Assembly: GCA_032718475.1 (NCBI GenBank)
Contig: JAUCBJ010008675.1
Location: 1 to 64,000, forward strand
Length of the DNA stretch: 64,000 bases
Reading direction: 5' to 3'
Source of the DNA: Nemertoderma westbladi
Taxonomy: Eukaryota; Animalia; Xenacoelomorpha
Positions 1 through 26,755 of this stretch are shown here, one piece after another. Position numbers and translations under genes: made by a program. How positions within the stretch are numbered: position 1 is the stretch's first letter; each line of letters starts with the position of its first letter. Under the pieces are notes generated by a model. It searched no databases and was not told the DNA's origin. It saw only the letters and a program-made list of their open reading frames with translations.

Positions 1-1440
1 ACCACTCAGACGTTGATAGAATACACGGGGAGGCGGTCTACATTCGTAAATTTCGCCCACCCCTGAACAAACTCATACCTGGCGTCGCGTAGGTTTATAT
101 CCACATGTTTCAATTTTTATTGAGAGCATTTCAGTATAGCGGGCCACTTGTTTATTTAGTGATTTATTTTTCGCCATGCCCTATCGGATCTACTGTAGTT
201 TTGAGACGTTGTTTCACTTTTCAATTTTTTATTTTTTTCAACTTTGCAATATTTTGTCCCTTTAGTTATTATTCTTTACCATGATCTATCTGTGTAACTA
301 TATTATATTGTTAGAATGTTTGTACAATTCTGTATTTACAACTGTTCAATAGAACCCTGTTCAATAATAAAGGGTTATATCCGATGCATTTTATTTTTTA
401 TTTTTTATCTTCAGTTATTATTATTTTTTATTTATTTTTTACCATGGTGCCCCTTATTTTGTATTTTATCCACCCTATAACTGACCTACCATATTTTGTT
501 TGAGGTTTCTAATTTTTATGTACAACCATCCCTTTGTGCGCACTTTATCTGATCTACTGTACTCTTGTGTTTACTTTGGAGATGGTCAAGTTACTAAAAA
601 ATTTTCAATTTTTCATTGTCAGCTATTAAAATGTGGCGTGCCGGTAATTTAGTTTATTTTATGTTTAAAATAACCTATCGTAACTACTGTAGTTTAAGAT
701 TTTGCACAAGTTTAAATTAATTTATTCCAATACGCCGTGCCTTTATTTACTTTTAACGATGCCCTATTTGTTCTACTTATTTTATATGCCGTGTTCTTTT
801 ATTTAGTTCTACTATGCTATATGGTGCTCTATATTAACTTTTCCCGCCCCGTTATTTTAACTACTGTACTGTATATCTTTAGGTTCACCTGAATATTTTG
901 ATCTGTCAACTGTTAGTACGAATTGTACTGCTGTACTGCCTCTGCCTGACAGCCTACCGTACCATGGCCTACACGCTACACCGTACACCACGTAGCCCAG
1001 GCTGTCAGACTACAGAACCAGCATTACAAACCGGTAACGGTATCTGTGGTTTATTATTGTACAACATCTAACTGTATTATTTCAGTATTTATTTTATTGT
1101 AAGTCTATTGTTCGGTTTCTGAGTTTTACCAGGGCTTTGCAGTTTATTTCAGTATTTCGTTATTTATTTTAGTGTATTTCTGTAATTTCCTTACGTATTC
1201 AGCTATTCCATGTAGGCCTACTCTATTTGATTATTTAGTCTGTAATGCAGTAATGTGATTTCATATTGTTAATTATTTACTTGAGAATGGGCCTGGGAGC
1301 TCGAAATCGATCGTAACAAACTCTTTATTTTATAAGTTTATAGGGAATTTAGACCCCAACCTGCCTGCCTTAGAGGAGAGAGGATCCATAATGTATGTTT
1401 CAAATAATTCCCTGAAGTCGGCTTGTCGGTTTTTGAGGAA

Positions 1441-2100
1441 TTATAAATAAGGATGGAACGCGTAAACTCCCTCGTAAGAGCGTCCAGGGTAGTAGCGATG
1501 GCGGGACTCACAATGTAAATCCGCGTTCGCTTCCCAAGCTCGGATGTAGCGCAGGGTAATCATCTCATCTACGCTCTCTAAATCACGATTAAAGGGGCAA
1601 TTATAACTGGCATGTCCTTTAAGTTGACAGTGGTGGCATTGAGTCATAAATTGGGGGCAGACTGCAAAAATATGAGAGTTATTAAGTCTGCAATACGCAC
1701 AATATATCTCCATCATCGGTTGTTCGTGGAAATAGGAGCAGGGTACGTCTGAGTCCATGGGGGTGAAATGGTCTCTCGATGCGCATAATCGACAACGTTT
1801 TCGAGAAACATAGTTAGCGTGTCGATAATCGTATGCGGTGAGACATTGTGGACCTTGATACCACTCTCAGACGTAGTCGTTATCGCTGCTCCGGGGCGCT
1901 GTAGGCTGGATCGCTTCAGATTCTAAGCATATTGGTTTGTCTTCCAATTGCATAGCTGAGGTAGGTGCGACTGTCTCCGCAAGCGGACCCACTGTGAACT
2001 TCCACGACAGAATAACCTGTGGGTATTCGGGGTCTTTGTATAACAGATGAATGTAAGTTCTGTATACAAACGTCCTGAAAGAGAGCAAATCCCGCGCTGT
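1441..2100 (-). pseudogene. C-terminal part of the accessory protein with three zinc-knuckle-like motifs
   Basis: ORFs 1867-2088 and 1441-1758 are in the same frame, separated by one TGA (1867-1869). Manual read-through gives CRLCASRDH..., CAYCRLNNSHIFAVC and CHHCQLKGHASYNC (C-x2-C-x4-H-x4-C). Confidence 0.7.
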
Positions 2101-2171
2101 TTAGCTTCTCCGCAGCTGAGTCTCTTAGGCTGAGTTTGGTCAGAGCGCGGTCCTTGAACTGACTATCAACG

Positions 2172-4070
2172 TTACGGAACGGAGTCAGAAAGCGCCTTGA
2201 AATTCCATCCGTATTCTTGAAAGGCAAGATGTCCGATGGAGGTTCGTTGTACTTTGGTAATGCCGCTGGGTGTATTGGCATACATAGTGCGGAAGAAACC
2301 TCGGCCTTCTGCCCAGGGAGCAATCAGCTGAGTATCCACGAAAGGGTATGGAATGTTTTCCATATTCCGAAAGTCGTTTTGTAGATCTCCATAAACAGCC
2401 GAGCCGATTTTAAGGATTCTTTCGTTAAACAACATCTCGAGCACGGGTTGGGGTAACATCGATCCATCGATACCCATGGCCGGTTTGCGCTCGGTGTCGG
2501 CGACGTAATGCTGCGCGAGCTCGAATTGTCCATGTCGGAGTCTCTTTTGTGTCTCAGTAAGAGTTTCAAAAGAATAATCAATCACATCGGAACACGCTCG
2601 AGTAAATACGTGGGTAGAACCAGCGAGTCCTCGTACGTGTATCATCCGCGTAGTTCCCAGTTCTCCAACAGGAACGCTACCTTCGTTGTCGTAGGTGACA
2701 ACTCCATACATCTCGATAACATTAAGAGTCTCATTCCACTCTTTAGTGGCGTTTTCGAGAGTCATTCCCATAGGATGCCACAAGGTAGCGCATTCGCTAG
2801 CATTAGGTAGGTCTCTATACTTTAAATATTGTGTGGTATATGTTTCCACATCTCCATATCGTTGTATTCTTTCCTCCTCGAATAACACGTCAATATTCCA
2901 GTGTACTAAACGAGTTTTGATGAATCCATCAAGATTATACGGAGGTATTGTTTCTTTCTCTATTCTGGAAACATTGTATGGTTTTCGAAATGAGTTTATT
3001 TTAACCAACTGATCCAGATGTTTATGCAGTTGTTCGAGTTCGACAAGATCGAGAGGATTTATGAGTGGCAAAAACCTCAGACTATGTGTAGGATCTTCCG
3101 GTTTTACCATGTAATATTGTGTTAGGTTAACGTAATAAGGGTGATCTTTGATCCCATAAAACGAGTCCGGTAAAGGTCTAGCGCGTATATTTACATCGTG
3201 TACCATGCGACGGACAAGATCCGCTCTATTGTCCGGAGGTTCAACGAGTATACCATCGACACGAGCGGCTTCGATGGGTGGACGTTGCAACATGGGAGCG
3301 TCAGCGATAAGCTCTCTAGATCTTAGGTTGATATCAACCGGTTGAGGTTGTATCGTCGCAAAGAGTTTGTCTCCGAAATGGGGAACCATCGAGGGATGAA
3401 GGATGGTTTTAGAGTAGAGATCCGTCATAAGGATTTGAGCTTCGGGTTGAGCTAAAGCTGCTTCTTCTCTCTCATCTAGTTCTATATGTCTCTCCTCGAG
3501 CTGATTTTCCTCCGCTTGTTGTTGTAGACGCTCATCTAGGAACTCTTGTAAAGAGTAGGTTCGTCCACGTTTGATGTCCTCTTCGAGATTTTGTATTTCT
3601 CTATCGAACTGGGGTAAAGCTAATTCCTTCACCGCTTGGACTTGTTGTTGCAATTTACGTTTCTCCAAAAAATCGTAAGTTCCTTTTCCGATTTTCTGCC
3701 GAATAGCATCTAACGCGTTTCGTACGACGCTCTCTTCGACTTCCGTAACGGGTTGTATCGAGGTGAAGCCGGGACGGTTGTATGGGTTAAACGGCGATAT
3801 TAGATGACCGCGTCCCAATCCAGTTAGGTAGGGTTGGCGAATATCTAGTGAGCCTACTACCGGAGTACCACCGATCAACTGTTCGGGTAACACTAGATCT
3901 TTGAACAGTGAGTACAGTTCGGGAGGATCCGTGATACTATTAGGATCAAGAGTCTGAGGTCTAACCGAGGAATGAGGAGGTCTGACCGAGTATTCCGGAA
4001 CTCTGATCATTGGTTTGTTCAAGGATCGTTTGAGTCGAGCGACCGTAGGGGATACGTCGAACAGGTTTCG
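2172..4070 (-). pseudogene. Central part of the BEL accessory protein: coiled coil plus DEDDy (WRN/EXD2/RNase D-like) 3'-5' exonuclease domain
   Basis: Open frame from the 4070 breakpoint. Motifs VVTYDNEG (ExoI D-x-E), LPQPVLEMLFNERILKIGSAVYGD (ExoII), FVDTQLIA and SIGHLAFQEYG follow the order and spacing of the WRN-type exonuclease family. Confidence 0.7.
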
Positions 4071-4993
4071 CTCGAAACTCCCATAAGTATATCGTGTAAA
4101 ACTGTGTTTGTTATGTTTTTGCCCAGAGCCTAAGAACCGGCTTTTGGCACCTCCGTGTTTTCAGTTTTTAGTCTTACACTAGTAGGTTTAATTATAAGGG
4201 CATATATCCTTTAACTGACATACCGATCAAACTCATGGAATCACTGATCTGGGAATACACTGACTGCTGACACACGGCTTTTAACAACTGCTGAAACTGC
4301 TAAAATTACCTGCTCAATCGATACTGTATACTGCTATTTGTTGTCGGTTATTCATTATATTTGTTGATAAATTATTATATTGGAATAACGAGAAATAACC
4401 CCGAAAACCCAATATTCTTGATATACCGAAGGTAAGAGAGAAAGGTTACCAATAACGATTGTGACTTATGTTAAAGTGGTTTGAAGTGAATCTAATGTTA
4501 TTTGATAGACCCTACATGAGTCAGTCTGTGTTCCTTTTATATGTGACTAAAATCAGTGAAGATTGGCAGATTAGTGTGCAGTATTGTGCAGCATTGTGTA
4601 TGAGTGAGTCTGTTAAAGAAGCAATTCCTAAAGAATGCGCCATATATGTGAATTATAATTAAGCCATATCGTTGTGAGTAGTTTAAGTCATAACTCTGTT
4701 TATATAGATAAAGCGCCACGTCCTAAAGGAACTGTTAATATTCCCGAAGGTGAATAATATTGTCAGAGATTATATAATACTGTCAGTCGAATAATACATT
4801 AGGCTTACATAGCAATAAAATTAAACCGTCGAACCCAATCTCCCGGGAATATCCAGCGGGTGAATGATCGCGCACAGATTGGTTTCGACTAGTGTAGTGA
4901 ATCAAATACTTGTCATAGACTAAAAGCGATTTAATATCTAGAAGACATCTTAATTTGGTGGGTTAAACTGCCAAAAGTCTGAAAGCGCGAACA
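4071..4993 (+). repeat. Distal part of the BEL LTR (copy P)
   Basis: Aligns by eye to the reverse complement of about 25536-26365 (e.g. GCGCCACGTCCTAAAGGAACTGTTAATATT, CCAGCGGGTGAATGATCGCGCA); clear similarity stops at GCGCGAACA. Confidence 0.85.
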
Positions 4994-5294
4994 GAAGTCT
5001 CGTGGTAAGGGTGAACGGGAATAACGAGGTAATGCGTCTGCGACGTGTACGTATAATATATTATCATATATATAACGCAACGGAACAATAGCGTATAGCA
5101 GCTAACTAGGTAACGGAGTGCGGCTACGGTAGGATGTAGGTAACACAGTGCAGCTACGGTACCAGCAGCTGTGCAGTCGGCAGGTACCGGTCGTGTGCTG
5201 ACGTGCACACCCTGCACCGTGTACTGACACACTGTATGTCAGGCCGATCGTCAGGCCATGTGAGACAGACAGACGGTAGGTACTAACCGGCTGG

Positions 5295-6885
5295 TGTAAC
5301 TTATCTTTTTACCCAGTTTGTGTGCCGAAGTCGAGGCAGGGACCACTACTAACTAGGGTGACATCCATTCACCACAGTCATATAAAGTCAACACAAACAT
5401 CGGGTAAAGTAAACTGTAAGGCGTACATACGTAATATAACTAACTATGAACACACTAAATAGGAGTATACAACTATAATAACAATGGAGCAATGATAATC
5501 ATGTGTGCAAAAAAAACAGTTGGCCAACTTAGGTGTCGAACTCGGTATGGTTGGGAGCAGGTACACATGCGTTATCCCCCAAGCTAATCGGGGTGTTGGG
5601 TAACAGTTGGTGTGCGGGTGGTATGATAGGACATACTGGTTGCACCTCCATATTAGATCGAAAATGTTCACAAACAAAGCGAAGAAAGAGTTCAAAATAG
5701 TATGTAATACAGCTAAGTTTTTCAAACTAAAAGTCACTAATCGGTTTGTTTCGCCATTAGCGGCTGGAAGTCACCACGGATGATTATAATCTCATTATGT
5801 ATATATCGCAACTAACTAACTCGCAGAAGAAGTAGGGGGGGGGGGGGGGGGGGTTAATCGCAGCTAGTCAATGACGTCGGATGGGGCGAGCCATGCACAC
5901 AGGACGCATCAGGCGCGAGTTTTTATGGGAAACCGTAATATTCGGGTGGTTTGCGCACCCTGTGAGGGTGCTGTCGCTGGGAGTTGGGTGGGTCCAGGAT
6001 AACTGGGGCGGGTTGTGGGGCTGGTAGTGGCTCCACCGGTGGGTCGAACGCATCCACGGAGGGTAGTGCGCTGCCAGGGACCTGGCTGGGTAAGACTCGT
6101 TGAGGGACTCGAAATTGGAGTCGGACTAGAGGTCGACAACTGTAGTGGGTTGTGCGATTCGTGGTACGAGGAAGCAGTTGGCCTGTGGGACCCTGTAGGT
6201 GTATGCGCGGAGTTGTGATTGGAGCACCATGTGCTGTCGGTAGCGCTAACGATATACCGGGGGCTAGCGCCTAAGCGGGGGGTGTCAACATAGAGGTGTA
6301 CAAGGACATTCATGTTGAGGGCAGTGAACCCAGGTAGGACGTGGGGCAGTGAACCTTGGAGCATGCGCTGGCTGCATGGTTGGCAAGGCGACGGTAGTGT
6401 TGGGCAGAGATGATCGCAGTGTCGTCCAATGGGAGTTGGTCACCGGTAAATTGATCATGCTGGAAGAGGATCTCGCGTGCAGACAGCCCGGGATCATGGA
6501 GTCAGGCGTTAAGGTGGGCCACCGCAATGGCAAGGGATGTAGATGAAAAGGGTCCGCCGGAGGGACGGAGCTTAACTACCTTGGCTTGCAGTTCTCCGAT
6601 GGTGTGTTCGGCAATGGGATTTTTGTTAATATTCTTCCAGGCGCTGACTTCGAGGAAGAGGTGGTGGGACTTGAGGGTGGGGTCACCAACGAGGGCCTGA
6701 AAGCCTGGGCCGGGGTCTGTCCGGATGATGGCGAGGGGGCCGCTAAGGGGAAACATACCAAAGGCCAGGTTTATTACGGCGTCGCGCAGAGTGTCCTGTT
6801 GTTCGTCGGGAATTATGACGGCATTAGTGTAGGATGACACAGTTTTCGCGGATAAGAAGGATCCACTGTGAATAGCGGTGGAAGA
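5295..6885 (-). mobile_element. Ty3/Gypsy retrotransposon 3' fragment (degenerate integrase core and C-terminus, probable 3' UTR/LTR remnant)
   Basis: IIRTDPGPGFQAL...KNINKNPIAEHTIGELQ is a Gypsy-type integrase core, followed by frameshifted fragments 5868-6533. Possible LTR end ...GTTACA at 5295 (minus strand); boundaries approximate. Confidence 0.65.
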
Positions 6886-6987
6886 CATCAGCGGTAAACA
6901 ACTGGCCGACGACAGAGGGTGGATTGGGGGAGGACTGGATCGGGGTACCGAACAACAAGAGTCCCACAAGAAATGAAAACAAATAAG

Positions 6988-7076
6988 TTGGTGCCAGTTC
7001 CCAAGAAGGGCAACTCTATGGTTCTTTTTGGGGAATCTCATTGATCTCGATTGCTGCAAAACTATACAATAGAATG
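6988..7076 (+). mobile_element. Short non-LTR (RTE-like LINE) reverse transcriptase fragment
   Basis: Translates with one frameshift to LVPVPKKG...GISLISIAAKLYNRM, the LINE RT N-terminal motif. Confidence 0.6.
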
Positions 7077-7113
7077 TATACAATAGATATTACAATAGAT
7101 ATCTATACAATAG

Positions 7114-9127
7114 ATATTTTGGTCATGTTCTCCCTACGTATTCCTATCAACCTGATATTGATACTGACGTAAATACTCCCGAATGGTTAGGAGGACCTGA
7201 CTTTCTCTACAGAGAAGAAGAAGAATGGCCTCCCCATCTCACAACAGCAGAGATCAGACAGGCCAAGGGAGCGGAGAAAGTTAAACCCAAAACTCGAGCG
7301 AGTAAATCGAAGTTGTTTAAACCTGCGGTTGATCTATCGGTATTATTTACTTCCGGAGAGGATGCTTTGGATCAGAAACCCACCGCCACGACTAAAGAAG
7401 TCTTGGAAATCCGTGACAAGGATTGGAAATCTGGAATACCAGATATTTCGCAAGGACTCTCACCTCTCTTGCAGAGAGCGATACGTCACTACAGTTCCTG
7501 GAATCGGCTCTGTAAAGCTGTCACCTATTTGAAACGATGTTTTCATCATCGTTACTCCGGGACAAAGACCAATAGTGATGATGCTCCATCAACATCTGCA
7601 CGAGTCCATGTTGTTAAAGATCTTCCTAAATACAAGATATCCGACAGGTTTCTAAAGGAGAAGATCAGTTACCAGGAGCATGATGAAACCAACAAACAGA
7701 TGCTGAGACTCCTACAATGCTATGAGGATTCCGATAAGTATTTCCTGTTGTTAAGAAATCCACAGATGCGCTTAAGGGATCGCTTCTCTAGTACCATGAT
7801 AGATGGGTTAATACGTGTTGGAGGTCGGCTGACCAACGCCCCGTTATCCTTTGACACTAAGTTTCCCATACTCATTAGAAATCTTGATATACAAATCAAG
7901 ATGATTGTAGATGTTCATAGCAAACTGTACCATGCTGGTAGAGAACGAGTTCTGAGCGAAATTCGAACTCGCTACTATTTTTATAAACCCCGTAGGGCTC
8001 TGAACCAAGTTCTTAGGAACTGCATACCCTGTAGGAAAGCATTCAGTAGGCCTTTGACACAGCGAGAGGCAGAATTACCTAGGGAAAGAGTAAGCTTCTA
8101 TGAACCACCCTTTACTAATACCGGTGTGGATTTATTTGGCCCTATTGAAGTATATCGTGCCCGGACTATAGTCAAGAGATGGTGTGTCATCTTCGTTTGT
8201 ATGACTTGTAGAGCTATCCATCTCGATATGGTAAACGATCTATCCACCAACAGCTTCGTGTTGAGTTTACGACGACAGATCGCTCGCTTCGGAACCAGTA
8301 ACACGATGAGATCGGATAAGGGAACGAACTTCATTGGCGCCAACAACGAAATTCAAGCTTACGTAAAGGACTGGAACAAAAGACAGGTGGACGATCAGCT
8401 AAGGATAACAGCGTCTAGCTGGACCTTCAACGCCGCCGACGCCCCTTGGTGGGGAGGAAGTTGGGAGAGATTGATTAGGAGCGTGAAGACTGCGTTCCAC
8501 TTTATTGTGCCTTGTCGCGCTTATCTCACCGACGAACTATTGCGGACGTTAATGGAGGAAATCGCCGCCTATCTCAACGAAAGACCGCTTATGCCAGTCT
8601 CTTCAAATCCTGATTCCCTGGAAGCGCTAACACCCGCGCACTTTCTACTGAAGAAACCCGTAGCCATGCTCCCACGATCGGAGATCACAGACGGAGACGA
8701 GTACTGCCGTCGAACCTGGCAACTTATGCAGTTGCTATCCCGTCGTTTCGCTGACCATTTCGAGAAACATTACCTGCCCACTCTACAACTTCGAACTAAG
8801 TGGTTTGCGCAGCAAGAAAACGTCAGCGCTGGAGACATGGTGCTTATTGTGGACCCCGATCTCCCACGTAAGCGATGGCAAACAGGACGTATCATCGAGA
8901 CTTATATCTCGAGCGATGGTTTGGTGCGATCAGTAGAGCTCGTCGTCATGCGGCGGAACTTTAAGAAACCAGGGATAGTCTTTGAGACTCAACAGCTCAA
9001 TCGCCCAGTGGGTCGTTTATGTTTACTGGAAAGAGACAGAGAGCTCTCCGGAAACTATGGAAGGCAAGAAACTCTTCCCACGACCACTTCCCTAATCCAA
9101 CCGACATCTAGGGACTCCCCAACTTAA
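7114..9127 (+). pseudogene. 5'-truncated BEL pol of copy P (RNase H remnant and complete integrase)
   Basis: Protein is nearly identical to the C-terminus of the M polyprotein: HHCC zinc finger, GVDLFGP, RSDKGTNF, GGSWERL. About 400 bp of RNase H is deleted near 7152-7170. Confidence 0.9.
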
Positions 9128-9135
9128 TATCGTTC

Positions 9136-9151
9136 GGAGTGGGCGTGTGAC
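9136..9151 (+). promoter_or_regulatory. Polypurine-tract-like site plus TGTGAC immediately after the pol stop (copy P)
   Basis: GGAGTGGGCG|TGTGAC, 8 nt after the stop codon; same arrangement in M. Confidence 0.55.
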
Positions 9152-9672
9152 TCTATTATTTTATATTATTTTATTATTTTTATATTTATGTATGTATTAC
9201 TATGTAATTTTATTATAATCGTTTTATTTAATTTAGTAGAATATTATTTAGCGATTATTTTGTAGAATAGTGCAATATATTCGTGTTTATTACGTACGTA
9301 ATTACTTATATTATATTTAGTGAGACGGCGAAGAAATAATTATTTTTCTCTTTCCTTACTGTCCGTATTATATTATAAATACGTAACTACAGTAAGATGA
9401 AATGTCCGTACTTATTAAAGTACAATAAAGCCACTACTATATTTAAGTATTATTGGTAGGCAGAGTATTAGGAATGCAAAGTTCAGATCCTCGTGTCTCG
9501 GCTAAACCAAGCTCTGGGTAGACCTTGGAAACGACTTGCCTCTTCACACTGACATTGCTTCGTGCGATATTGCTCTCATACCGTATATTAAATAATACAT
9601 ATAGTAGCGTGATGTCCCTTTAACAGTAGCGTATAACGCAAAATAAATCTGTTAAACCCTTTGACCATCTGT

Positions 9673-9953
9673 AATTCTAGTCGATTAAGATATCGCGGCA
9701 CCCACCGATATACTTGAAAGACAAATTCTAGAATCAGTGGTTAACGTCCCCAGACAAGTTCTGGAATAAATCGGTGCCCATCTCAAATATTAATTAGTTA
9801 ATATTTACAAATCAAATAAGTCAAAATCTGTAAAATTCAGATCCTTCAACAATTCTAGTCAATTAAGATATCGTAGCATTTACCGATATTCTTAAAGAGA
9901 CAATTTTCTTAGAATTAAGGATCTTGTGTCCCTAGACATGTTCTAGAATCAAA
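9673..9953 (+). repeat. Imperfect direct repeat of about 100 bp (9673-9770 and 9851-9953) in the pol-accessory spacer
   Basis: AATTCTAGTCRATTAAGATATCG...GTTCTRGAAT occurs twice; mirrored in M at about 14235-14500. Confidence 0.7.
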
Positions 9954-10783
9954 ATATGTCCATTTAATTATCAAATAATAAAATTTCAGGGAATAAATTT
10001 AAATTCATGTCTTTTAATGAATTTAATAAATTGCCATTTTACGCAATTTATAACAGTTCCCAAAATTCCATTAATTAATAGATCAAGGGAGCGGAGATTT
10101 ATATTATTATGCGTATGCGTGTACGAAAGTCTCCCAAACATAGTTAATAGCCGATAAAATTCATAAAGTCATGTATAAAACAGAACATTGACTATTAAAG
10201 AATACTATTAAATAACATCCCAGATCTGTATGCATTGGAATCACCCTAATTCTACCGCTAGCTTTGCATAATGTCACCATAGCAACAACCACGCTAGAAT
10301 TAGAATTGAGTTAAAAGAACAATAGAAAGCTTGTCCCATTGAATAGCATAGGGAATAAATAGCGCACTACTAGTATCCAAGGATACATAATAATACAGTG
10401 ACATTCTGGAAGGCATTGACTAACGGACAAATGGCCCGAATGTGTGTAAGTTGTGACCAGTTGTGTGTGTGGTATTTGTGAGTTTTAGGTTAGGTGAATG
10501 TTACTGCTAAGGTGTGTTTACAGTAGCTAGTCGCAATCGTAAAAGTAACCTAACTCTCCAAGGAAAACCTGAAGTACATCTAAGCCTTTGGGACGGACAG
10601 TCGAGTGACTTGTGCCGGTTGTCGTTGTCGTTGTGCGGCTACGTCGTTGGCGAAAGTACAGCGGCGACGACACATCGGCGCTGAGGATCTCGTACTGTCC
10701 GGGGGTTAATTGGAGTAGGCAGCGACGCTCGCTAGCCTAAATATAAACTCCTTATAATATGGATAAACTCATATATAGCAGAT

Positions 10784-12130
10784 ATGACGGAGTTGATAGA
10801 AGATGGTCTTGGTATCGGGGAGCGATATACTCTACTTTTACAAGCGTTTGTTGATAGCTTAATACGCGGCGACGTTAGTCCAACTGCTGCGGAGGACGAT
10901 GGTCGTTATATCGAACCGACAATGTCCCAAGTGCAGCTCTCGCGAGAGTTGGACTATAGAAAATTCGCTGCTCGATATACGCAGCGTAATGGTACGTATA
11001 TGGGCTTCTTAACTACTGGTCATCCTATCGATTTACACGATACGGACAATGTCGACACCAAAAGGGAAATGGTACGATTGAAATATCCTACCCAGCGGAG
11101 GCGGAACGATAAACCGAGAATGGAACACGAGAATTCTATTCGAAACAGACTCGAAAGAGAAGACGTTGAGGAGCCGGATAAACGCAGCGACTTCAACGAT
11201 TATCTGGAATTCCTGATAGAAACATATCTCAATATTACCAGTCAACAAAATCTAGAAACTCGATATCCTCAAGGTATACATCATGACCGCATGGTAGAAC
11301 TCAAACGGCTCGATTCCCCTATGATGTATCTTACCGCCGATCGACCGCTACCTGTTGTACCGAATAGCTTCGAACGGATGGAGGAATATTGTAAGCTGGA
11401 GAAAGATCACTCGCGTTTCCCCTACAAGACGTACGTTTTTGGGTATTATTACGGTAAATGCCCTAGACCCAACTAATAAACGGAAAGACATAAACATCCA
11501 CGGAGACCGAAACTTGTTGACGTATCACCTATGCTCACTCGGCTCGAACGATCCTGGAGTAAACCTACGATCAGAGTCCCGGAATACTCGGTCAAACCTC
11601 CTCATTCCTTAGTTGGACCTCAGACCTGCGATCCTGGTGGTGTCGCGGATCCTCGCGGACTGTATTCACTGTTCAAAGATCTAGTGCTACCCTAACAATT
11701 AATCGGTAACACTCCGACAGTGATTTCTAGCTAGCCGCCCATCTTACCCAGCCGGATTGTGACGCGGACACCTAATATCACTATCCAACCGTATGGTCGT
11801 CCCCGTTTAACGCGATACAACCCCTCATCAAGGTGAAGGAGAGCTTTGTACGAAACGAGTTAAACGCTATTCTATAGAGATCAAAAGAGAAACCTGCGTT
11901 TGTTCAGATAAACGTAAGTTATAACAGTAAGTCCAGTCGATAAACGAATTGGCCTTATCTCAATTCGATTAGGAAATCCAGAATCTCTAAGAAGTTATCG
12001 AACTTGGACGATCCTATTCTCTGCGAGAGTTTTTGGATGAACGTATCCAGCTACGAGCGGAGGAAAATCAGCTCGAGGAGAAGCATATCGAAACGGCAGA
12101 TACCTCGACCACAATCCTACACCTTCTGAT
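10784..12130 (+). pseudogene. Accessory gene of copy P (N-terminal part; degenerate after 11476, 3' part deleted)
   Basis: 230-aa ORF. Beyond TAA-TAA (CAG-CAA in M) the frame reads ...HPRRPKLVDVSPMLTRLERSWSKPTIRVPEYSVKPPHS, homologous to the start of the 2172-4022 ORF. Confidence 0.8.
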
Positions 12131-12285
12131 GCAATCATATTGCACCCTTCACCCAGGAGTTATGGCCCTCCTAGTAAAGTGGCTCCCCCAAAGAGAAAAG
12201 GACTCTTGCTAGCCTCAAAAAACTGCGTAAACGCCGTCCGCGCAAGAAAGACTAACTGTTTAGAGTATCTTTATATTTTAGAAAC

Positions 12286-12692
12286 TGTGATTTGTTATAT
12301 TTTATAGACTGAAAATCCCATTTTCTGGGAGCGGTGTAAAAGCTTTTGCTGAATTGTCCGGTTATTTTTCCTTATTTTTCCCGAAAAATACTCTGTAGTT
12401 GGTTTACCAGGCATAAAAAGGCCGTGTCCTTGCTGTACTGGTGTTTTAGCGGACATAAAAGCTATTTCTTCTGTATTTGTACTTTAGAGGACATAATCCG
12501 TAATTCCGTGACGTAAAAGCTCGATACTCTTGAAAACAGTGTCGCTACCATGACGACGGCTAGCAGCTGATATTGCCACGTCGACGTTTCTTTGTTTCTT
12601 TGTTCTCTCGTTGTTCAGGTTGACCAATCAGAGCGTTTGTTGTCTCTGTGTTGGAGGTATATACAGAAACTCAGTAGTTCAGTAGCGCAACG
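12286..12692 (+). repeat. Proximal (U3-like) part of the BEL LTR (copy P) with CCAAT, TATA-like and Inr-like motifs
   Basis: Aligns to the reverse complement of about 26370-26755. GACCAATCAG at about 12622, GTATATAC at about 12657, TCAGT at 12671 and 12679. Confidence 0.8.
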
Positions 12693-13413
12693 TCTCCGCG
12701 GATGTTTATGTCTTTCCGTTTGCTGATTGGGTCTAGGACATTCGTCGCAGTAGTACCAAAGACGCACGTCCTGCAAGGGAAACGCGGGTGATCGTTCTCC
12801 AGTTTTACAATATTCCTCCATCTGTTCGAAGCTATCTGGGACGACAGGTAGCGGTCGATCGGCGGTAAGATACATCATAGTGAAATAGAGTAGTTTGAGT
12901 TCTATCATAGGATCATGATGTATACCTTGGGGATATCGAGTTTTGAGATTTTGTTGACTGGCAATATTGAGATATGTCTCTCTCAGGAATTCCAGATAAT
13001 CGTTGAAGTCGCTGCGTTTATCTGGCTCTTCAACGTCTTCCCTTTCGAGTTTGTTTCGAATAGTGTTCTCGTGTTCTATTCTCGGTTTATCGTTCCGACT
13101 CCGCTGGGTATGATATGTAAATAAAACCATTTCCCTTTCGGTGTCTACATCGTCCGTATCGTGTAAATCGATAGGATGGCCAGTAGTTAAGAAGTCCATA
13201 TACGTACCATTACGATGCGTATAGCGAGCGGTGAACTCTATAATCCAATTCACGCGTAAGTTGCTCCTGGGACATTGGCGGTTCGATATAACGACCATCA
13301 TCCTCCGTAGTAGTTGGACCAGCGTCGCCGCGTATCAAGCTATCGACAAACGCTTGTAAAGGTAGAGTATATCGCTCCCTGATGCCAAGATCATCTTCTA
13401 TCAACTCAGTCAT
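12691..13413 (-). pseudogene. N-terminal part of the accessory gene of M (one frameshift near 13238)
   Basis: ORFs 13210-13413 and 12615-13301 together match the 230-aa ORF of P. Homology ends at 12691, where LTR sequence begins. Confidence 0.85.
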
Positions 13414-15019
13414 ATCTGCTATGAGTTTATCAATATTATAATGAGTTTATATATTAGGCTAGCGGGCGTCGCTGCCTACCCTTCTTTTGCCCCCGGACAG
13501 TGCAAGATCCTCAGCGCCGATGTACCGTCGTCGCTGTGCTTTCGCCAACGATGTAGCTACACAACGACAACGATAACTGGCACAAGTCACTCCACTGTCC
13601 GTCCCAAAGGCTTAGATGTACTTCAGGTTCTTTATGGAGAGTTAGGGCTACTTTCACAATTGCGACTCGCTACTGTAAACACACCTTAGTAGTATCATTC
13701 ACCTACAAACGCACAAATTCAACACAACTGCCATAAACTACACACATTCGGGCCATTTGTCCGTTAGTCAGTACCTTCCAGAATGTCACTGTATTTATTA
13801 TGTATCCTTGGATACTAGCAGTGCGCTATTTTTTCACTATGCTATTCAATGGGGCAAGCTTTCTATTGTTCTTTTAACTCACTTCTAATTCTAGCGTGGT
13901 TGTTGCCATGGTGACATTATGGAAAGCTAGCGGTAGAATTAGGGTAATTCTCATGCATACAGATCTGGGATGCTATTTAATAGTAATTCTTTAATTGTCA
14001 ATATCCTCTCTATATATGATTTTATGAATTTTATCGGCTATTGACTATATATTGGAGATTCTCGCACACAAATACACTTAATAGAGTGAATCTCCGCTCC
14101 CATGATCTATTAATTAATGGAATTTTGGGAATGTTATAAATTGTATAAAATTACAATTTATTTAATTCATTGAAATATATGAATTTAAATTTATTCCCGT
14201 AAATTTTATTATTTAATATTAAAATAGACACAATTTTATTCCAGAACGTGTCTGGGGACTGGGATCCTTGATTCTAGGAATTTTGTCCTTTTAAGAGTAT
14301 CGGTAAGTGCTACGATATCTTAATCGACTAGAATTTTAAAGGATCTGATATTTGACAGATTTGGTAAATATTAATAATTAATATTTAGGATGGGCACCAG
14401 TTTATTCCAGAACTTGTCTGGGGACGTTAACCACTGATTCTAGAATTTTGTCTTTCAAGTATATCGGTGGGTGCCACGATATCTTAATCGACTAGAATTG
14501 CAGATGGTCAAAGGGTTTAACAGATTTATTTTGCGTTATACGCTACTGTTAAAGGGACATCACGCTACTATATGTATTATTTAATATACGGTATGAGAGC
14601 AATATCGCACGAAGCAATGTCAGTGTGAAGAGGCAAGTCGTTTCCAAGGTCTACCCAGAGCTTGGTTTAGCCGAGACACGAGGATCTGAACTTTGCATTC
14701 CTAATACTCTGCCTACCAATAATACTTGAATATAGTAGTGGCTTTATTGTACTTTAATAAGTACGGACATTTCATCTTACTGTAATTACGTATTCGTAAT
14801 GTAATACGGGCAGTAAGGAAAGAGAAAAAGAATTATTTCTCGCCGTCACACTAAATATATGATATAAGTAATTACATAATAATCGCGAACATATTGCACT
14901 AATCTACTAAATAATCGCTAAAATAACATGCTACTAAATAAAATTAAATAAAACGATTATAATAAAATTACATAATAATACATACATAAATATAAAATAA
15001 TAAGAATATAAAATAATAT

Positions 15020-15044: not shown

Positions 15045-18000
15045 CTAAGCTGGGGAGTCCCTAGATGTTTGTTGGATTAGGGAGGTGGTCGTGGGAAGAG
15101 TATCTTGCCTCCCATAGTTTCCGGAGAGTTCTCTGTCTCTTTCCAGTAAACATAAGCGACCAACTGGGCGATTGAGCTGCTGTGTCTCGAAGACAATTCC
15201 CGGTTTCTTGAAGTTACGTCGCATGACGACGAGTTCTACCGATCGCACCAAACCGTCATCCGAGATGTGAGTCTCGATGATACGACCTGTCTGCCACCGC
15301 TTACGTGGAAGATCTACATCCACAATAAGAACCATGTCTCCAGCGCTGACGTTTTCTTGCTGCGCAAACCACTTAGTTCGAAGTTGTAGCGTGGGCAGAT
15401 AATGTTTTTCGAAATGGTCAGCGAAACGACGGGATAACAACTGCATGAGTTGCCAAGTTTGCCGACAGTATTCGTCTCCGTCTGTGATTTCCGATTGTGG
15501 TAACATGGCTACAGGTTTCTTCAGTAGGAAGTGCGCGGGTGTTAGCGCTTCCAGGGAATCGGGACTCGATGAGACTGGCATAAGCGGTCTCTCGTTGAGA
15601 TAGGCGGCGATTTCCTCCATTAACGTCCGCAAAAGTTCGTCTGTGAGATACGCGCGGCAAGGCACTATAAAGTGAAATGCTGTCTTCACACTTCTTATTA
15701 ATCTCTCCCAACTTCCTCCCCACCAAGGGGCGTCAGCAGCGTTGAAGGTCCAGCTAGACGCTGTTACTCGTAGCTGATCGTCCACCTGTCTTTGGTTCCA
15801 ATCTTTGACGTAAGCTTTGATTTCATTGTTGGCACCAATGAAGTTAGTTCCCTTATCAGATCTCATCGTGTTACTAGTGCCAAAGCGAGCGATCGTCGTC
15901 GTAAGCTTAATAGAAAGCTGTTGGTAGATAAATCGTTCACCATATCGACATGGATAGCTCTACAAGTCATACAAACAAAGATGACACACCATCTCTTGAC
16001 TATAGTCCTAGCACGATATACTTCAATAGGGCCAAATAAATTCACACCGGTATTAGTAAAGGGTGGTTCATAGAAGCTTACTCGTTCCCTAGGTAATTCT
16101 GCCTCTCGCTGTGTTAAAGGCCTACTGAATGCTTTCCTACAGGGTATGCAGTTCCTAAGAACTTGGTTCAGAGCTCTACGGGGTTTATAAAAATAATAGC
16201 GAGTTCGAATTTCGCTAATAACTCGTTCCCTACCAGCATGATAAAGTTTGCTGTGAACGTCTACAATCATCTTGACTTGTATTTCAAGATTTCTAATGAG
16301 TATGGGAAACTTAGTGTCAAAGGATAGTGGAGCATTCGTTAATCTTCCTCCAACAAGTATCAACCCATCTATCATTGTGCTAGAGAAACGATCCCTTAAG
16401 CGCATCCGTGGATTTCTCAACAACAGGAAATACTTATCGGAATCTTCATAGCATTGCAGGAGTCTCAGCATCTGCTTGTTGGTTTCTTCATGCTCCTGAT
16501 AACTGATCTTCTCCTTCAGAAACCTGTCGGGTATCTTATATTTGGGAAGATCTTTAATAACATGGACCTGCACTGATGTTATTGGAGCGGTATCACCTTT
16601 GGCCTTCATCCCGGAGTAGTAATGGTGAAAACATCTCTTTAAATATGTAACGGCCTTACAGAGCCGATTCCAGGAACTGTAGTGATGTATCGCTCTCTGC
16701 AGAAGAGGTGAGAGTCCTTGCGAGACGTCTGGTATTCCAGATTTCCAATCCTTATCACGGATTTCCACAACAAGTTTATTTGTGGCTGTGGATTTCTGAT
16801 CCAAAGCGTCGTCTCCGGAAGTATGTAGTACAGACAGATCTACCATAGGTTTGAATAACTTCGATTTACTCGCCCGAGTTTTAGGTTTGACTTTCTCCGC
16901 TCCCTTGGCCTGTCTAATCTCTGTGGTAGTAAGATGAGGAGGCCATTCTTCTTCTTCTTTGTAGAGGAAGTCTGGTCCACCTAGCCAGTCTGGAGTATCT
17001 ACCAGTTCTTGTGGAGTTGCTCCCCTGGAGGCGATGTCTGCTGGATTAATCGTTCCGGGGCAATGTCTCCATTGATCCATCGTTGTGCGACTGAGTATAA
17101 TAGCTACTCTGTTGGTAACGAAGACGCTGAACTGACAGACTTCATTGGTTATATACTCCAACACGAGTAAAGCGTCGGTCCAATAGACAGTTTTCTCCAG
17201 TGGATAGTCGATCTGTTCTGTTACATTCCGGCCGATGGCTGTAGCGTATAGAGCCGCCTTTAACTCCGCTCGAGGAACTTTCAACTTGTTGTTTATCAAT
17301 GCCTTAGAAGTAACCAAGGCAACTTTGATTCCGTCCGGAGTTTCCACCCTTAGGTAGGCTACTATACCTATTCCCATATCGCTGGCGTCTCCAAACACAT
17401 GGAGTTGATAGGAATACGTAGGGAGAACATGACCAAAATATGAACGGGAAATTATAAAGTTCTCGATGGCTGGTAGAGAATCTTCCCATTTCATCCACTT
17501 CTTTAATAATTCTCCCTTAAGTGGATCGTCCCATGAGTGGTTTTCAAGCCACATTTGTTGTACTAAACTCCGAGCAATCAATATAACTGGGCTAATAAAT
17601 CCCAATGGATCGAAATAAGTGCTCAGGATACTTAAACAAATCCGTTTAGTCCGAACTGGATTATCTCGCTGTTTTAGTTGGAAAAACAGGATATCTCTTT
17701 CTGTGTCCCATTTCAAACCAAGGGTCTTAGTTTCTGGGAGATCATCTTTTATTAGATCCAGATCTTTCGCTCCTCGATCTTCTATCGGGATCGACTCCAG
17801 AAACTTACGGGAGTTGCTGGTGAATTTAATTAATCGAAATCCACCTCTTTTTAAGCACTCTACCGTTCCTTTAGCGACATCAATGGCTTCTTCGACTGAT
17901 GGAAGGGACTTTAGATTGTCGTCCATGTATATATCCTTCTTGATGTTGTCAATCACCTCTTTAGAGAAGGCATCTCGGTTGTCATCCGCAGTGGTGCGCA

Positions 18001-21000
18001 CCACGGAACAGGCGTTTGAAGGGCTTGAGATTATCCCAAAAGCCTGGATGGTCATCCAGTACTCCACCGGTTTCTGGTTGAGGTCTCCTTCAGGCCACCA
18101 CAGAAATCGTAGGCTGTCTCGATCCCTATCCAGCGCCTTGACTTGTAAGAACATGCCTTCTATATCTGAGGCGAAAGCAATGGAATATTGTCTTAATCTT
18201 AAAAGTATTCCCAACAAGGATTGGAGTAAGTTGGGTCCGGGTAACAATTCAGAATTAAGGGATTGGCCCATATAGAGGGCGGAGCCGTCAAACACCACTC
18301 GTACTTCATGGGGTTTACCGGGTTTGGGAACATAATGGTGAGTTAAATAATACGTTCTCTCAGTTATAGGTGTTTCTTCCGGTACTAGCTCCGCGTATCC
18401 CTTGCTAATAAATTTCTTCAACTGTGTTCGATACATTTCTTTAGCTGAAGAATTTGCCGTAAGGCGTCGATGTAGTTGAGCAATTCTTTTCTCCGCCAAG
18501 GGTCTGTTGTTCACGAACTTTGGTTCTCGCTTTCGGAAAGGTAGACCGATCTCATATCTACCTTGATCTTTAAGAAAACGTGTAGTTGTCTCTTGGATCT
18601 GCTTGGCTCTTTCTTCCTCTACCGATAGGGCCTTATCGTAGGAATTGGGCTCTACAGCCTCTTGAGTAAAGAATAGTACGGCATGTTCATCCCGAGTCTT
18701 GGCATTATATCGTTCAATGACGTCATTAAGTTCGTCGTTATAGTCGTCTCGTTCTGATGGAAGAAGGAGCTGACATAAGTTCACTTGGTTTTGCCAAGTC
18801 TCGTTTTCCTTAAGGAGATCGATGGTATTCTCCTCATCGAAAAGTTGGTGGACATCGTCGTTATCTGAGGAGTATGGTGTTCCCTCAGTTAGATCATCTA
18901 ACTCACTGCCCTCGACTTCCCATTCTCTCACTTGACATACCTGGTCTTTCGGTAATCTTTCCATGAGAGTTCTACGGGAAGGGCCAGTAAAGTACCAACC
19001 CACTCTAGTTTTTCCCGCATAAGCTTGTAGTGGTTGCGGTTGAGCGGGCCGTTTCTCCAATGTCTCGAGCGCTTCATGCGCGTTTTGACCGATGAGTATT
19101 TGCACTCCAGGGTAATCGGTGTTGAATCTAGGTATTTCTAGCTGCTGGGTGAAATCGTCCTCATCCCAGTTATAAGGTTCCACTTGGGTGTTAGCGAAGT
19201 TCTTTATCGCCACCATTTTTACTGACCTTATACTATGTTCTCCTAGTTCATCCTGGGGGGTGGACAACGCACCTACAGAATAATCCACTATTACTGTAGA
19301 TTTCCAAACCTGCATAATTCCTGACATGCTTACCTTAGTTCGGAACTTGGGTTGTCCAGCAAAGATGTCTTCGGCTAGTTCTTTGTCGATGAATGTTCCT
19401 GTACTACCGGAGTCAAGGAGGGCGTTCACTACATAACTCCTTTTAGGTCCGTGGACCCTTACCTGTACTACAGGAAATTCTCGGATTCCTACATTGGAAG
19501 GTGGCGCTTTCCACGATGGTTGTCGATCAGAAGTAGTTAGGGTGAGGTCGCTGTCTGTGTCTTTTTCATACGTAAGTGCTCGATACACTGCGGTATTTAT
19601 CATGTAACAGGATTCACCTTCGTCGGAAAATTCATCTGTATAGAATCCTTCCACCTCAGAGCTTTGGTCAGTGTCGTTCACATCACTGAATTGGACATGT
19701 AGTTCGGAATCAGTTACCTGACTCGGACTATTTCGCTCGAATTCAGTGTGCAACAAGATATGATGTTTCGCACCGCACTTTGCACACCTTGTGTCGGAGT
19801 AACAGGTTCGCCGTTGGTGTCCTTGTCTGAGGCAATTATAACACAACTGCTTATCCCACATGACTTCCCGTCTCTCCGCTAATGATTTCTTCAGGAATTC
19901 ATCACACATATTCAAACGGTGAGTCCCGTCACATAGCGCACATTTCGGTTTGATGTTACTTACCTTATTTTGAATAACATTGTGCACACTCGTTCTTTCT
20001 TCGGGCTTTCTCACCTGAATTCTCTTGGGAGACGTAGGAGGAGTTTTTCTTACCTGTTCTCTCCTGTCATTGGTTCGAGACTTGAATTTACTTACCTGAT
20101 CTTTAGGCGTTTTATTGACATAATAAGATCTTTCAGTGTCTTTCCCGCTATCCTCTCCTTGAGAAGTCTGGCTTTCGCCGTCGTCTGTATAACACACTGG
20201 TGTTACCTTTCTCCTAGAGACGGGTTTCTCACTTACCTTGTTTTCCGGTGTCTTCTCTCTGGACTGCTTTATGAGCTGTAATTTCACTTCGCCATCCAAG
20301 AATGACATGAGATCAGCCATGGTAGGGTCTCGTTGTTGTTGTTCCATCATATATAACACTTTCTTGTCCCAGCGTGTACCTACTCCACCCTTCGGTAAAT
20401 TAGAAGCCACTGCTCTAATAACCATAGCACTCTGATACTCATGAGACTTACCTAGCCAATCTAATTGTCTGCAGATCTCCTGAATCTCATCGGAAAACTC
20501 TATAATCCCGCTGCTGATAAACTTTCGGGGCGCTACCAACTTTGCATACAAATACCCAGCTATGTTATTCCTATTACCATACCTGATGTTTAGTGTATCC
20601 CAAACTTGTCTTAATCCGTCTGGATGTCCAATAAACTTTAACGCCATTAACTTGGGAGATCCTTCCAAGCACTCGATGAGGAATCTAAGTTTCTCTCCAT
20701 TAGATAGCACAGAGTTCTGTATGTTATCTTTGTAATATTCATTAAAAGGTAACCATTTCATCTCATCTCCATTGAACTTGACTATCTCTCCCACGTTTAC
20801 CGCTTGGCGGGCTTTGGTTCTAGCCATTTGACGCGTAAAACTTTCTTGGGCCATCGTGTTATTTAATATCGAGTTATCGGTATATAAATTTCTCGGATTA
20901 TGATCAGGTCTATAGGGAATATCACTATCAACAGGTCTATAATTACCCTTAATAGGGTTTACTATAGGAGTTTCTACTTCGCTAGCAGTATAGATGCATG

Positions 21001-23089
21001 TAGGCTCCACACCTTGCGCATGAGATACTTCAGACCTAACGGGTTGACATATTGTTACAGAGGGTGGTGATATACCCTTTTGTAAATTTACTAATTTATC
21101 GCGTTCTAGCGCGATACTTTGCTGCACTTCTTGCAACTCTAACCTACTTTCCCTTACTGTGCCCTTGAATTGCTGAACGGTCTCCTGCATCTGCCCGAGC
21201 AGGAGATCCATCCCCCGTCGTCTCTCATCCACCCACTCGACCGCCAAAGCGGGAGCCGCCAACGTTGTAGCGGGCCGACGAGGGACAACGGGCGACAAAT
21301 CATTAATATTTCGCTCGGAGTCCAGGACATGAACATTTTCAAGGGTGGTTCTGTGGGGCACAGATAGCTTAGTGCTGTGCAGAGGGAATTTAGAGGTAGG
21401 TTCAGGGAGTACAGGTGTCTCTACCAACAAAGGGGTGGCTTCGGGAACAGGCCTAATTATTTCAGGCTCATCTACTATAGTAGGGAGTCTTTCTATTTTA
21501 ATTATTTGGTCTGTGGGTTCTGTACTACCTAAGTTTGTGTTATTTAGTTGCCTTCTAACAGCTGGAGGCAAATCAGGCAATTTCTGACGGTGGGATGTTC
21601 TTCTACGTCTGCTTAGACGAGATCTATTTCCTTTGCCTTCAGTATCGGTGGTATCGCCTTCCTCAGATGATGTATATCCCCGTCTTTTGGGAGTAGATCG
21701 ATTCATCATCTGCATATTACTAGCTGTTAACTGTTTATTTATGCAGTCTTGATTCTCCTGAATGTTTTCCAATTCTAATTGGGTGATTTCTTCAGCCGCT
21801 CTCCGTTCTGCTTCTGCCACTGCCTCTGCCACCTTTCTTTCCGCCTCTGCCGCTGCTACTGCCGCTTTTCTTTCTGCTTCTGCAGCTGCCACTGCTGCTG
21901 CCACTGCTGCTGCCTTTCTGTCTTCTATATGTTTTTTCTTCACTTGTTCTTCTTGGACTCTAGTGATGCGGAGTTGTTCATCAAATTTAGCTTGGTTCGC
22001 AGCTCTCATATCCACATCGATGGCGTCCAACACACGCTGGGTTCCTTCACTATTAGGGCTGAGTCCATCTAACCTTCTCCCCAACTCTTCATCTCCTAAA
22101 AAACGTTGATAGTCTGACAGATAGATGTCAATGGCATCCCTCTTATGCGGTTTCTCTGCCGTCGCTTCACTTTCCACTTGGGAAAAAGTAGCGTCTGTTG
22201 ATTCTCCATGGGTTGAGCGCTCCTCCAGCTGAGCTTTCCACTGAGCCGTTCCTTGAACCTGGAGACTCACCCGTTGAAACCAAGTCTTTACGGCAACTTG
22301 CAACGACGTGTCTTGTCTTCTTTTAGAAGCCTCCTCAAAGGCCGATAAGATGAGCCTGATTCGTAAAATTCTTTCTCTAACTTGATAAAGCAGCTGTACC
22401 TGCTCTTGAGGTCCTTGGGGTTGTTGAAACAATTGTTCTTTTAATCGCTCCATAGAGCTGAAGAATCCCTGTGCGTATCCGGCTGCGGACCTCTTCCACA
22501 CAGCTGGATCGATGGTTTCCTTGGTTACTCCCATCCTGTGTATATCTTCCCAGGCAGCTTCTGATAAATCAAACGGGAGTCTGGGTCCGGGGAAGTTCCA
22601 TTGCGACTCGACAATAGACTTCAGTTCTTCCCTTGTGTATCCCGCATAACTATCTTTAGTCGATCGCTTACTTCTCGCCCAATTGATCTGGTGTTCTTCC
22701 ACCGCAATCAATAACCTAGTGAGTACGGCTGCAGGAAGGATGAGAAGGGGATCCGAATAAACCGCATCCGTCATCTTTGCTCCGCGCTCGGGTGTCAGCT
22801 CTACAGTATCCTCACTACTGGAGCAGTCGGGCCATTGAGAAATAAGTTCTTGGCTCGCGGGTTGTTGTTGTTCCGCTGCTTCTTGGTCCCGCTTGACCTG
22901 AGCTCTAGTGCCTATGACAGACCTACGGTATTGGACCAGCCTAGGTTCTGATATTACTACTGGGGGAATGATCTTTCTTACAGTAGGAGGTGAGTTGAAC
23001 TTCGGTCTAACTCGTTCCACACTCCTGTCTGGGTCACATATGGTTGTATCTAGGAGACTGTCTGACAGGTTTTCCTTTGTGTCAGACAT
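15045..23089 (-). pseudogene. BEL/Pao Gag-Pol polyprotein (about 2680 aa when repaired), with a 1-nt frameshift in integrase
   Basis: Gag KFNGDEMKWLPF; knuckles CALCDGTHRLNMC, CYNCLRQGHQRRTC and CAKCGAKHHILLH; protease LLDSGS; RT YMDD; RNase H FGDASD; integrase HHCC and core. Comparison with P shows one base lost near 15893. Confidence 0.95.
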
Positions 23090-23224
23090 GTTGGTTTGTA
23101 CAGTTGAATGCCTACTGCTATATTACAGTTAAAGCAAGTTTAGTAATTCAGTATCAACTGTTAGCCTAGTAATTAATTACCGATACTGCTACTCAGTGTA
23201 GCGTGATATATATATAATATATTA

Positions 23225-25392: not shown

Positions 25393-25540
25393 CCGTTATT
25401 GTTCTTACCATAACAATATTAAACTGTATTTATTGCCTACCCTGCAATTAGATGATCTATCCGTTATTGTTCTTACCAGAACAATATTAAACTGTATTTA
25501 TTGCCTACCCTGCAATTAGACAGTATATCCGTTATTGTTC
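25393..25540. repeat. About 68-bp tandem repeat (roughly 2.2 copies) adjoining the LTR end
   Basis: CCGTTATTGTTC occurs three times; AATATTAAACTGTATTTATTGCCTACCCTGCAATTAGA twice. Confidence 0.85.
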
Positions 25541-26755
25541 GCGCTTTCAGACCTTTAGCAGTTTAACCTGCCAAATTTGGATGTCGTTTTAGATGATAAA
25601 TAGTCTTTAGCCTACGACAAATATTTGATACACTACATTAGCCGAAACCAGTCTATGCGCGATCATTCACCCGCTGGATATACCCGGGAGACTGGATTCG
25701 GAAGCCTAACCGTATTGCGGGATAGGTCTACTGTATTATTCGACTGATCTTAATATATATAATCTCTGACAATATTATTCACTTTCGGGAAATATTAACA
25801 GTTCCTTTAGGACGTGGCGCTTTAAATATATAAACAGAGTTATGACTTAAACTAGACACAACGGGATGGCTATAGATTCACGTATATGGCGCATTCTTTA
25901 GGAGATGCTTCGTTATCAATCACAGTCATACACAATACTGCACAATGCTGCACACTAATCTGCCGACCTTCACTAATTTTAGTCACATATAAGGAGAACA
26001 ACAGACAATACGTGTAGGGCCTATAAAATAGCATTAGATTCACTTCAAACCACTTAATGTAAGTCGCAATCGTTATATGTATCCGGTCTCTCTAACCTTT
26101 AGTATATCAAGAAGATTGGGGTGTCTGATTGTTTATCAGTATTCCAAATATAATATTTCATCAACAAATATAATGAATAACCGACAGCAAAAGCATTAAT
26201 GTTAAGGTATGAATGATTATGAGTGACTGAGTGAGATATGATCAGTTATGATTAGTTGAGTGAGATAACGGATATACGCTCTATAATTAAGCCTACTAAT
26301 GTTGATGCTAAAGACTGAAACACGGAGGTTCCACGCCGGTGTTGTAGGCTGTGGAAAAATCACATACTGACTCACTTCCCTAGTTTCTATCTACCATCTC
26401 TAACACAGAGGCAAAAAACGCTCTGATTGGTCGACCGAACAAAGAGAGAACAAAGAACAAAGAGATGTTCTACGTGGCAATATCAGCTGTTAGCCGTCGT
26501 CATGGTAGCGACACTGTTTCAAGAGGATCCGGCGTATTGCGTCATAGAATTGCTAATCATGTCCGCTAAAGTACACATACAGAAGAAATGGCTTTTATGT
26601 CCTCTAAAACAACAATACAGTAAGGACACGGCCTTTTATGCCTGTTAAACCAACTACAGAGTACTTTACGGGGAAAATAACCGGCTAATTACGCAAAAGC
26701 CTTTACATCTTGCTACGCAAATTATTTATTCCTATGATATACAAATCGGGTCACA
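25536..26755 (-). repeat. 5' LTR of element M (TGT...ACA, about 1.2 kb; inner boundary tentative)
   Basis: Starts TGTGAC; homologous to the two half-LTRs at 12286-12692 and 4071-4993. No convincing tRNA primer-binding site found downstream. Confidence 0.7.

Follow-up and report, generated by a model that had tools for sequence, protein, structure and literature searches.

A 64,000-nucleotide stretch of Nemertoderma westbladi DNA (contig JAUCBJ010008675.1, positions 1 to 64,000; hereafter the window) was analysed. It contains no Ns, has a GC content of 40% and carries a rhodopsin-family receptor and a C2H2 zinc-finger protein, both animal-type genes, together with a nest of repeats. Judged from its domains and LTR ends, the element on the minus strand that we call M is a BEL/Pao long terminal repeat (LTR) retrotransposon. 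Its accessory open reading frame (ORF) is interrupted by permuted DNA of a sister copy, P, which lies inverted relative to M and includes a block of Ty3/Gypsy-type DNA, G. The original prediction for this stretch had described an inverted sister-copy insert in the accessory ORF, and alignment of the window against itself bore out both the insert and its layout inside the host. The features are listed in Table 1.

Table 1. Features of the host element M, the insert and its junctions (positions in the window).
Feature	Position	Strand	Remarks
Permuted insert	4110..12683	+	8,574 bp, inverted relative to host M
Distal donor LTR part (P-type)	4110..4993	+	884 nt, ends ...ACA; alignment to M LTR ends at 4993 = 25536; depth falls beyond
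Flank DNA G	4994..6944	-	decayed Ty3/Gypsy-type pol (integrase) fragment and downstream region; low depth
Composite inner junction	6945..7166	+	putative circle closure; several source pieces
Inner junction, multi-copy repeat piece	~6945-7075	+	loose-ended records: 74 and 36 before 6945, 21 behind 7075
Inner junction, tandem filler	7062-7118	+	part of composite junction
Inner junction, RNase H piece	7114-7151	+	38 nt identical to M 17441-17404
Inner junction, last filler	after 7151, to 7166	+	15 nt
P pol 3' part	7167..9127	+	RNase H end and integrase; 89% identity with M
P spacer and accessory region	9128..12334	+	decayed from ~11474; 47 nt of host sequence missing at 11506/11507
Proximal donor LTR part	12335..12683	+	349 nt, begins TGT
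Left breakpoint	4109..4110	.	host ORF to LTR-distal part; T at 4109 common to both parents
Right breakpoint	12683..12684	.	LTR-proximal part to host ORF
Host accessory ORF, 3' part	2172..4109	-	645 open codons including 4071-4109; no Pfam match, no homolog
Host accessory ORF, 5' part	12684..13620	-	start approximate; broken at codon boundary at 12684; family contigs run from 4109 into this stretch
gag-pol of host M	15045..23122	-	2,419-codon frame and second frame for integrase end; frame broken once near 15900
5' LTR of host M	25536..26707	-	1,172 nt, TGT...ACA; ~83% identical to insert LTR parts

M and P represent two subfamilies, since their pol regions are 89% identical and the differences fall mostly on third codon positions (150 of 210). 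Over the 210 codons of 4109-3480 the left ORF of the host contains no stop. In P, each frame contains 9-11 stops over 11390-12095, and beyond the site homologous to the insertion its differences are distributed evenly among the codon positions (10, 11 and 10). Since both flanks of the site are open in the host and decayed in P, the two host halves are assigned to one element and the two P halves to another. The opposite assignment, in which the flanks come from different elements and the insert halves are the host's own 3' end, is disfavoured by the open host frames, by the decay of P and by LTRs that are only ~83% alike.

To locate the seams we used contigs from four public runs (X1-X4, of eight) of one organism, from at most three samples and at most three studies, in all of which the BEL/Pao family is high-copy. 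Around the left seam 32 pieces were listed of 1,450, and of the loose-end records 24 were listed of 56 rows. The breakpoints were placed at 4109/4110 and 12683/12684 because uninterrupted family copies join 4109 to 12684 and 12683 to 4110. Loose ends behind 4109 continued as the window does from 12684 onward in all four runs (9, 12, 8 and 3 records among the matches listed), with agreements of 0.99, 0.75, 0.96 and 0.93. Loose ends before 4109 corresponded to the window up to 12682 in X1, X2 and X4 (6, 3 and 1 records among the matches listed); in X3 the LTR join 12683-4110 appeared as loose ends before 4117, so it too was seen in four of four runs. A coarser contig table joined 4109 to 12689 in X1 and X3, and 12683 to 4114-4116, with 5-7 letters between, in X1, X2 and X3. 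Both the empty site and the contiguous opening point were found in family contigs of every run, which represent paralogous copies and not an orthologous empty allele. The LTR halves are swapped relative to the LTR of M and to family contigs, with the proximal part at the right end of the insert and the distal part at the left end. The circular permutation claimed earlier was thus supported, the unshifted order being taken from the family rather than from a particular donor copy.

The junction letters quoted in the original prediction are present at 4063-4078 and 12685-12698. From these it had derived reciprocal breakpoints at 4069-4071 and 12691-12692, meeting in a CG core. The reciprocity is real and exact, with one shared T at the breakpoints in Table 1; the core is not a junction. 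Listed contig pieces cross 4069-4071, two of the 32 doing so unbroken with at least 31 letters on each side (X3 4012-4109 and X4 4024-4109), and seven of the 32 stop exactly at 4109. Read in the left ORF's frame, the segment 4071-4109 gives 13 codons without a stop. From the contig joins and the pieces across 4069-4071 it follows that 4071-4109 and 12684-12692 belong to the host accessory ORF and not to the LTR, and the contiguous LTR junction proposed earlier is not that of the family. The apparent core arose because P lacks 47 nt there, so that both host flanks aligned to P stop at CG; lacking these nucleotides, P also does not share the length of the restored ORF, as had been stated. When breakpoints are called against one neighbouring copy, they can be misplaced by tens of bases, and a spurious recombinase-like core can result.

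The 47-nt gap of P (11506/11507) spans the exact site homologous to the insertion point in the host. It may be a coincidence, a subfamily trait or a sign of recurrent breakage.

At the seams one T is shared (4109 = 12683), and 0 nt are lost and 0 nt duplicated. The insert lacks TG...CA ends, and no target duplication of 2-12 bp flanks it, which agrees with the earlier view that it was not made by integrase. Integrase insertion and autointegration were rejected, as TG...CA ends at the seams and a 4-6 bp target duplication are missing. Crossover cores of site-specific recombinases comprise 2 identical bp for serine and 6-8 bp for tyrosine enzymes; both classes were rejected with only 1 nt shared and the CG core not a junction. 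Homologous recombination between sister copies was rejected for want of extended identity at the crossover, where ungapped flank matches amount to 9/30 and 6/30. The earlier phrase that the circle had recombined into a relative is not supported in so far as it implies homology. None of these three machineries is needed, and all misfit the seams; joining by non-homologous end joining is likely. The two crossover sites share no cut or restriction-like motif, and hairpins at the seams reach only -6 to -9 kcal/mol (calculated without control). The idea that the LTR broke where its transcription starts (TCAGT ending at 12683, CCAAT at 12624) was considered and dropped as post hoc: the insert contains 18 instances of TCAGT, and position 4701 carries a TATA-like motif also found in M, with AATAAA at 4814.

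Coverage changes sharply behind the LTR end at 4993. Summed contig depth per bin, which measures coverage and does not equal copy number, is 0-1,011 in five bins over 5124-6893, against ~45,000-1,400,000 in the family bins of X1-X3 and 61-14,766 in those of X4. A protein search with G gave, among 497 candidates, 5 matches that carry Pfam sets of the reverse transcriptase (RT)/RNase H/H2C2 kind (best E 9.9e-26). Because of its low depth and Gypsy-type content G is regarded as chromosomal flank, and the insert LTR would most simply be a 3' LTR followed by such flank. In the four runs G is absent or 1-6% different. This poor coverage is a gap in the contig data, not proof of an absent allele; possibly the insert allele is polymorphic.

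An origin of the seams in assembly or library preparation would account for this state of G, for the left seam being bridged by none of the 32 listed pieces, and for the occurrence of the join in a high-copy family. We regard it as very unlikely. There is no N in the window, and with 1 nt in common the seams offer no ground for repeat-driven misjoins. Random chimeras would not be expected to yield two joins that complement each other exactly at a distance of 8.6 kb, the two sites have no restriction-like motif in common, and the runs may stem from individuals without the insert allele.

Between G and the pol part of P lies the composite inner junction, which combines a multi-copy repeat piece, two fillers and a short piece of RNase H. 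Exact 38-mers such as the one shared by this last piece and M are rare between P and M (only 58 of 1,919). The filler presumably resembles that of polymerase-theta end joining or template switching, and the parts of the junction may be of different ages. These data bear on the kind of circle. The original prediction had offered a one-LTR circle or extrachromosomal circular DNA (eccDNA), of which eccDNA integration is retained as the best reading. A one-LTR circle from reverse transcription contains only element DNA, and here leader, gag and RT are missing while 2 kb of Gypsy-type DNA follow the LTR in place of leader and gag. Because of this low-copy flank and the messy filler junction at 6945-7166, the insert is not such a circle.

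We consider it probable that the insert is a chromosome-derived DNA circle that opened inside its LTR and was end-joined into a sister element. First, donor DNA from pol through the 3' LTR into ~2 kb of flank would have been closed into a circle by an error-prone form of end joining that adds filler, with the junction at 6945-7166 as its trace. Next, the circle would have broken 349 nt into its LTR and the host inside the accessory ORF. The four ends would then have been joined crosswise by a presumed end-joining enzyme, giving the structure seen at the junctions, with an overlap of 0-1 nt and without loss or duplication. The exact reciprocity of the seams against natural family copies speaks for this circle, and so does the combination of swapped block order, short overlaps and breakpoints in interspersed repeats, which is the signature of circular intermediates in PMC7450558 and PMC7188851. 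The Gypsy-type flank G, the lack of homology at the seams and the way in which the host halves and the P halves group together are further points in its favour. The locus shows three of the four defining features of eccDNA-mediated insertion: contiguous empty site and opening point, cyclically shifted order, and seams with microhomology only (1 shared nt). The fourth is an identified donor locus with unpermuted order, which would set such an insertion apart from tandem-duplication or inversion mimics.

Several points weigh against a circle. No donor locus was seen, and the source is defined at the level of the family. Evidence for the LTR join comes from family copies and not from the donor copy; therefore the two LTR halves could derive from two LTRs. 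Human intrachromosomal eccDNA insertions keep the source orientation in 79 of 80 cases, according to the preprint 10.64898/2026.09.03.749254. The left seam 4109/4110, the one inspected at fine scale, is unbridged in the 32 listed pieces (of 1,450). The exact 38-nt match hints at local copying from M and suits rearrangement in place at least equally well. Finally, two overlapping inversions from a same-orientation neighbour yield the identical order.

For the inversions to have occurred in place, M and P must once have been on one chromosome and pointed the same way. The reciprocal seams would then stem from a clean inversion with its ends in the host ORF and the P LTR, and the junction at 6945-7166 from a second, messy one between P pol and G. 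In a symbolic search two inversions were enough from a same-orientation donor, upstream or downstream, and three were needed from the opposite orientation. A single inversion is excluded (the minimum is two), as the original prediction held, which had overlooked the two-inversion route. Inversions normally give reciprocal seams without loss, and the nest of repeats in the window and the use of nearby M as a local template for the 38 nt would both fit. We nevertheless judge this route rather unlikely: it needs two separate rare events with breakpoints within ~3 and 5.5 kb of each other, and neither an LTR nor the 5' part of P was seen in window 1-2200. PMC7450558 regards inversion alternatives to this order as requiring an exact second inversion.

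In another reading the donor would already have been a two-LTR chimera (LTR, G, junction, pol, LTR). From it, LTR-LTR recombination could have popped out a circle, or a linear piece bounded by one identical position in each LTR could have been excised or copied. Such a donor would be colinear with the insert (distal LTR, inner DNA, proximal LTR), and PMC4751563 documents LTR-LTR recombination as a source of retrotransposon eccDNA in yeast. This origin seems improbable to us: nothing here shows the G-pol junction elsewhere, and in the linear version two LTRs would have to break independently at an identical base, for which no shared cut motif was found.

The insert was compared with known systems. 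PMC7450558 describes a change of block order from A-B/C-D to B-A/D-C in human segmental duplications (cSDPs), whose breakpoints lie in interspersed repeats and show microhomologies of 1-2 bp or short indels, and it cites cattle translocation cases. PMC7188851 defines the same signature for human eccDNA-mediated duplications and, in that context, warns of tandem duplication plus deletion as a mimic; PMC3245284 reports it for Nile tilapia vasa. Like these duplications and translocations, our locus has a shifted block order, a non-homologous acceptor, short overlaps (1-2 bp there), breakpoints in interspersed repeats, and a closure junction together with two integration junctions. Unlike them, it has no identified donor, its seams are unusually clean (no indel), its closure junction is unusually messy (~220 nt, several sources), and the opened molecule and the target come from one retrotransposon family. 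In human long-read data, 10.64898/2026.09.03.749254 classed 82 of 327 insertions as polymorphic germline AB-to-BA type; only non-repetitive sources were kept, and 23 of the 82 had terminal microhomology of at least 5 bp. The present insert resembles these in being permuted and without integrase marks, and differs in its overlap of 1 nt and its repeat source. Chimeric retrotransposon-plus-flank eccDNA (EVD) of Arabidopsis is described in PMC10462705, and yeast Ty circles are traced to genomic recombination in PMC4751563. As here, those circles unite a truncated LTR retrotransposon copy with the flank of its insertion site; they were seen free, whereas here there is an integrated footprint alone. 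A literature search, confined to titles and thus a weak negative, found no title that deals with a BEL/Pao element carrying a permuted insertion.

Retrotransposon-derived circles are mostly regarded as dead ends, and PMC10462705 leaves open the re-insertion of truncated or chimeric ones. A permuted insertion of circle type is an already known kind of event, to which the corrected locus would add a case: one more clean example, a base-resolved and lossless footprint in an animal retrotransposon. It sits in repeat DNA, which published screens filter out. It is also a single event, lies in junk DNA without any visible effect on a gene, and gives no clue to the enzyme at work. It would be a bold and improbable extension that a chromosome-derived circle with part of an LTR retrotransposon re-entered the germline of an invertebrate-type animal by lossless one-step strand exchange. 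In such a topoisomerase-like reaction both parents would be cut beside T, and retrotransposon and flank DNA would be moved without RNA or integrase. If this were true, such events in this high-copy family might be common and countable.

M shares with BEL/Pao elements a single long gag-pol, DUF1759, protease, the Pao Peptidase_A17, an H2C2 integrase, DUF5641 and a TG...CA LTR, as does P, and both differ from them by a long extra ORF with no detectable homolog behind a 1.4-kb spacer. Pfam matches in the host pol comprise Peptidase_A17 (E 4.9e-36), DUF1759, Integrase_H2C2 and DUF5641, and the domains follow the gag-PR-RT-RH-IN order (protease, PR; RNase H, RH; integrase, IN). No Pfam RT match was found at E 0.01; the translated sequence contains a YMDD motif. 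The leader (23238-25540) is long (2.4 kb) and repeat-rich, with tandem units of 123, 290 and 68 nt, and no recognisable primer-binding site follows the 5' LTR. This is the only LTR of M within the window, and no 3' LTR was seen in window 1-2200. In the spacers of P and M, which are otherwise ~88% identical, 9445-9671 and the host sequence near 14700-14500 are perfectly identical over 227 nt, owing either to gene conversion or to a conserved cis element.

The open frame of the accessory ORF suggests a function in the host subfamily. Searches with it gave no confirmed relative: 0 of 7,996 candidates from 5.8 billion proteins (lengths 333-1061 only), 0 matches at E 0.001 among 1.84 billion representative proteins, 0 Pfam matches, and 133 pattern matches in metagenome contigs of which 0 were confirmed. 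For the host pol, 37 pattern matches in metagenome contigs likewise yielded 0 confirmed. At 12805-12758 (-) the ORF has +1 and -1 indels relative to P that cancel within ~16 codons and are either natural or assembly errors in short homopolymers. Two short ORFs follow it, at 2323-1919 and 1866-1444 (-), one of which has a weak zinc-knuckle match (E 0.00056, below the Pfam cut-off).

A tRNA scan found nothing. Elsewhere in the window, positions 1-90 (+) look like the end of a putative GIY-YIG endonuclease of a Penelope-like element. Self-alignment showed self-inverted (palindromic) elements at 30263-31209 and 49211-49469 (955 and 276 aligned columns), and 55031-55226 forms with 63803-64000 an inverted pair that is 95% identical and 8.6 kb apart. 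These palindromic elements and the inverted pair are probably ends of DNA transposons.

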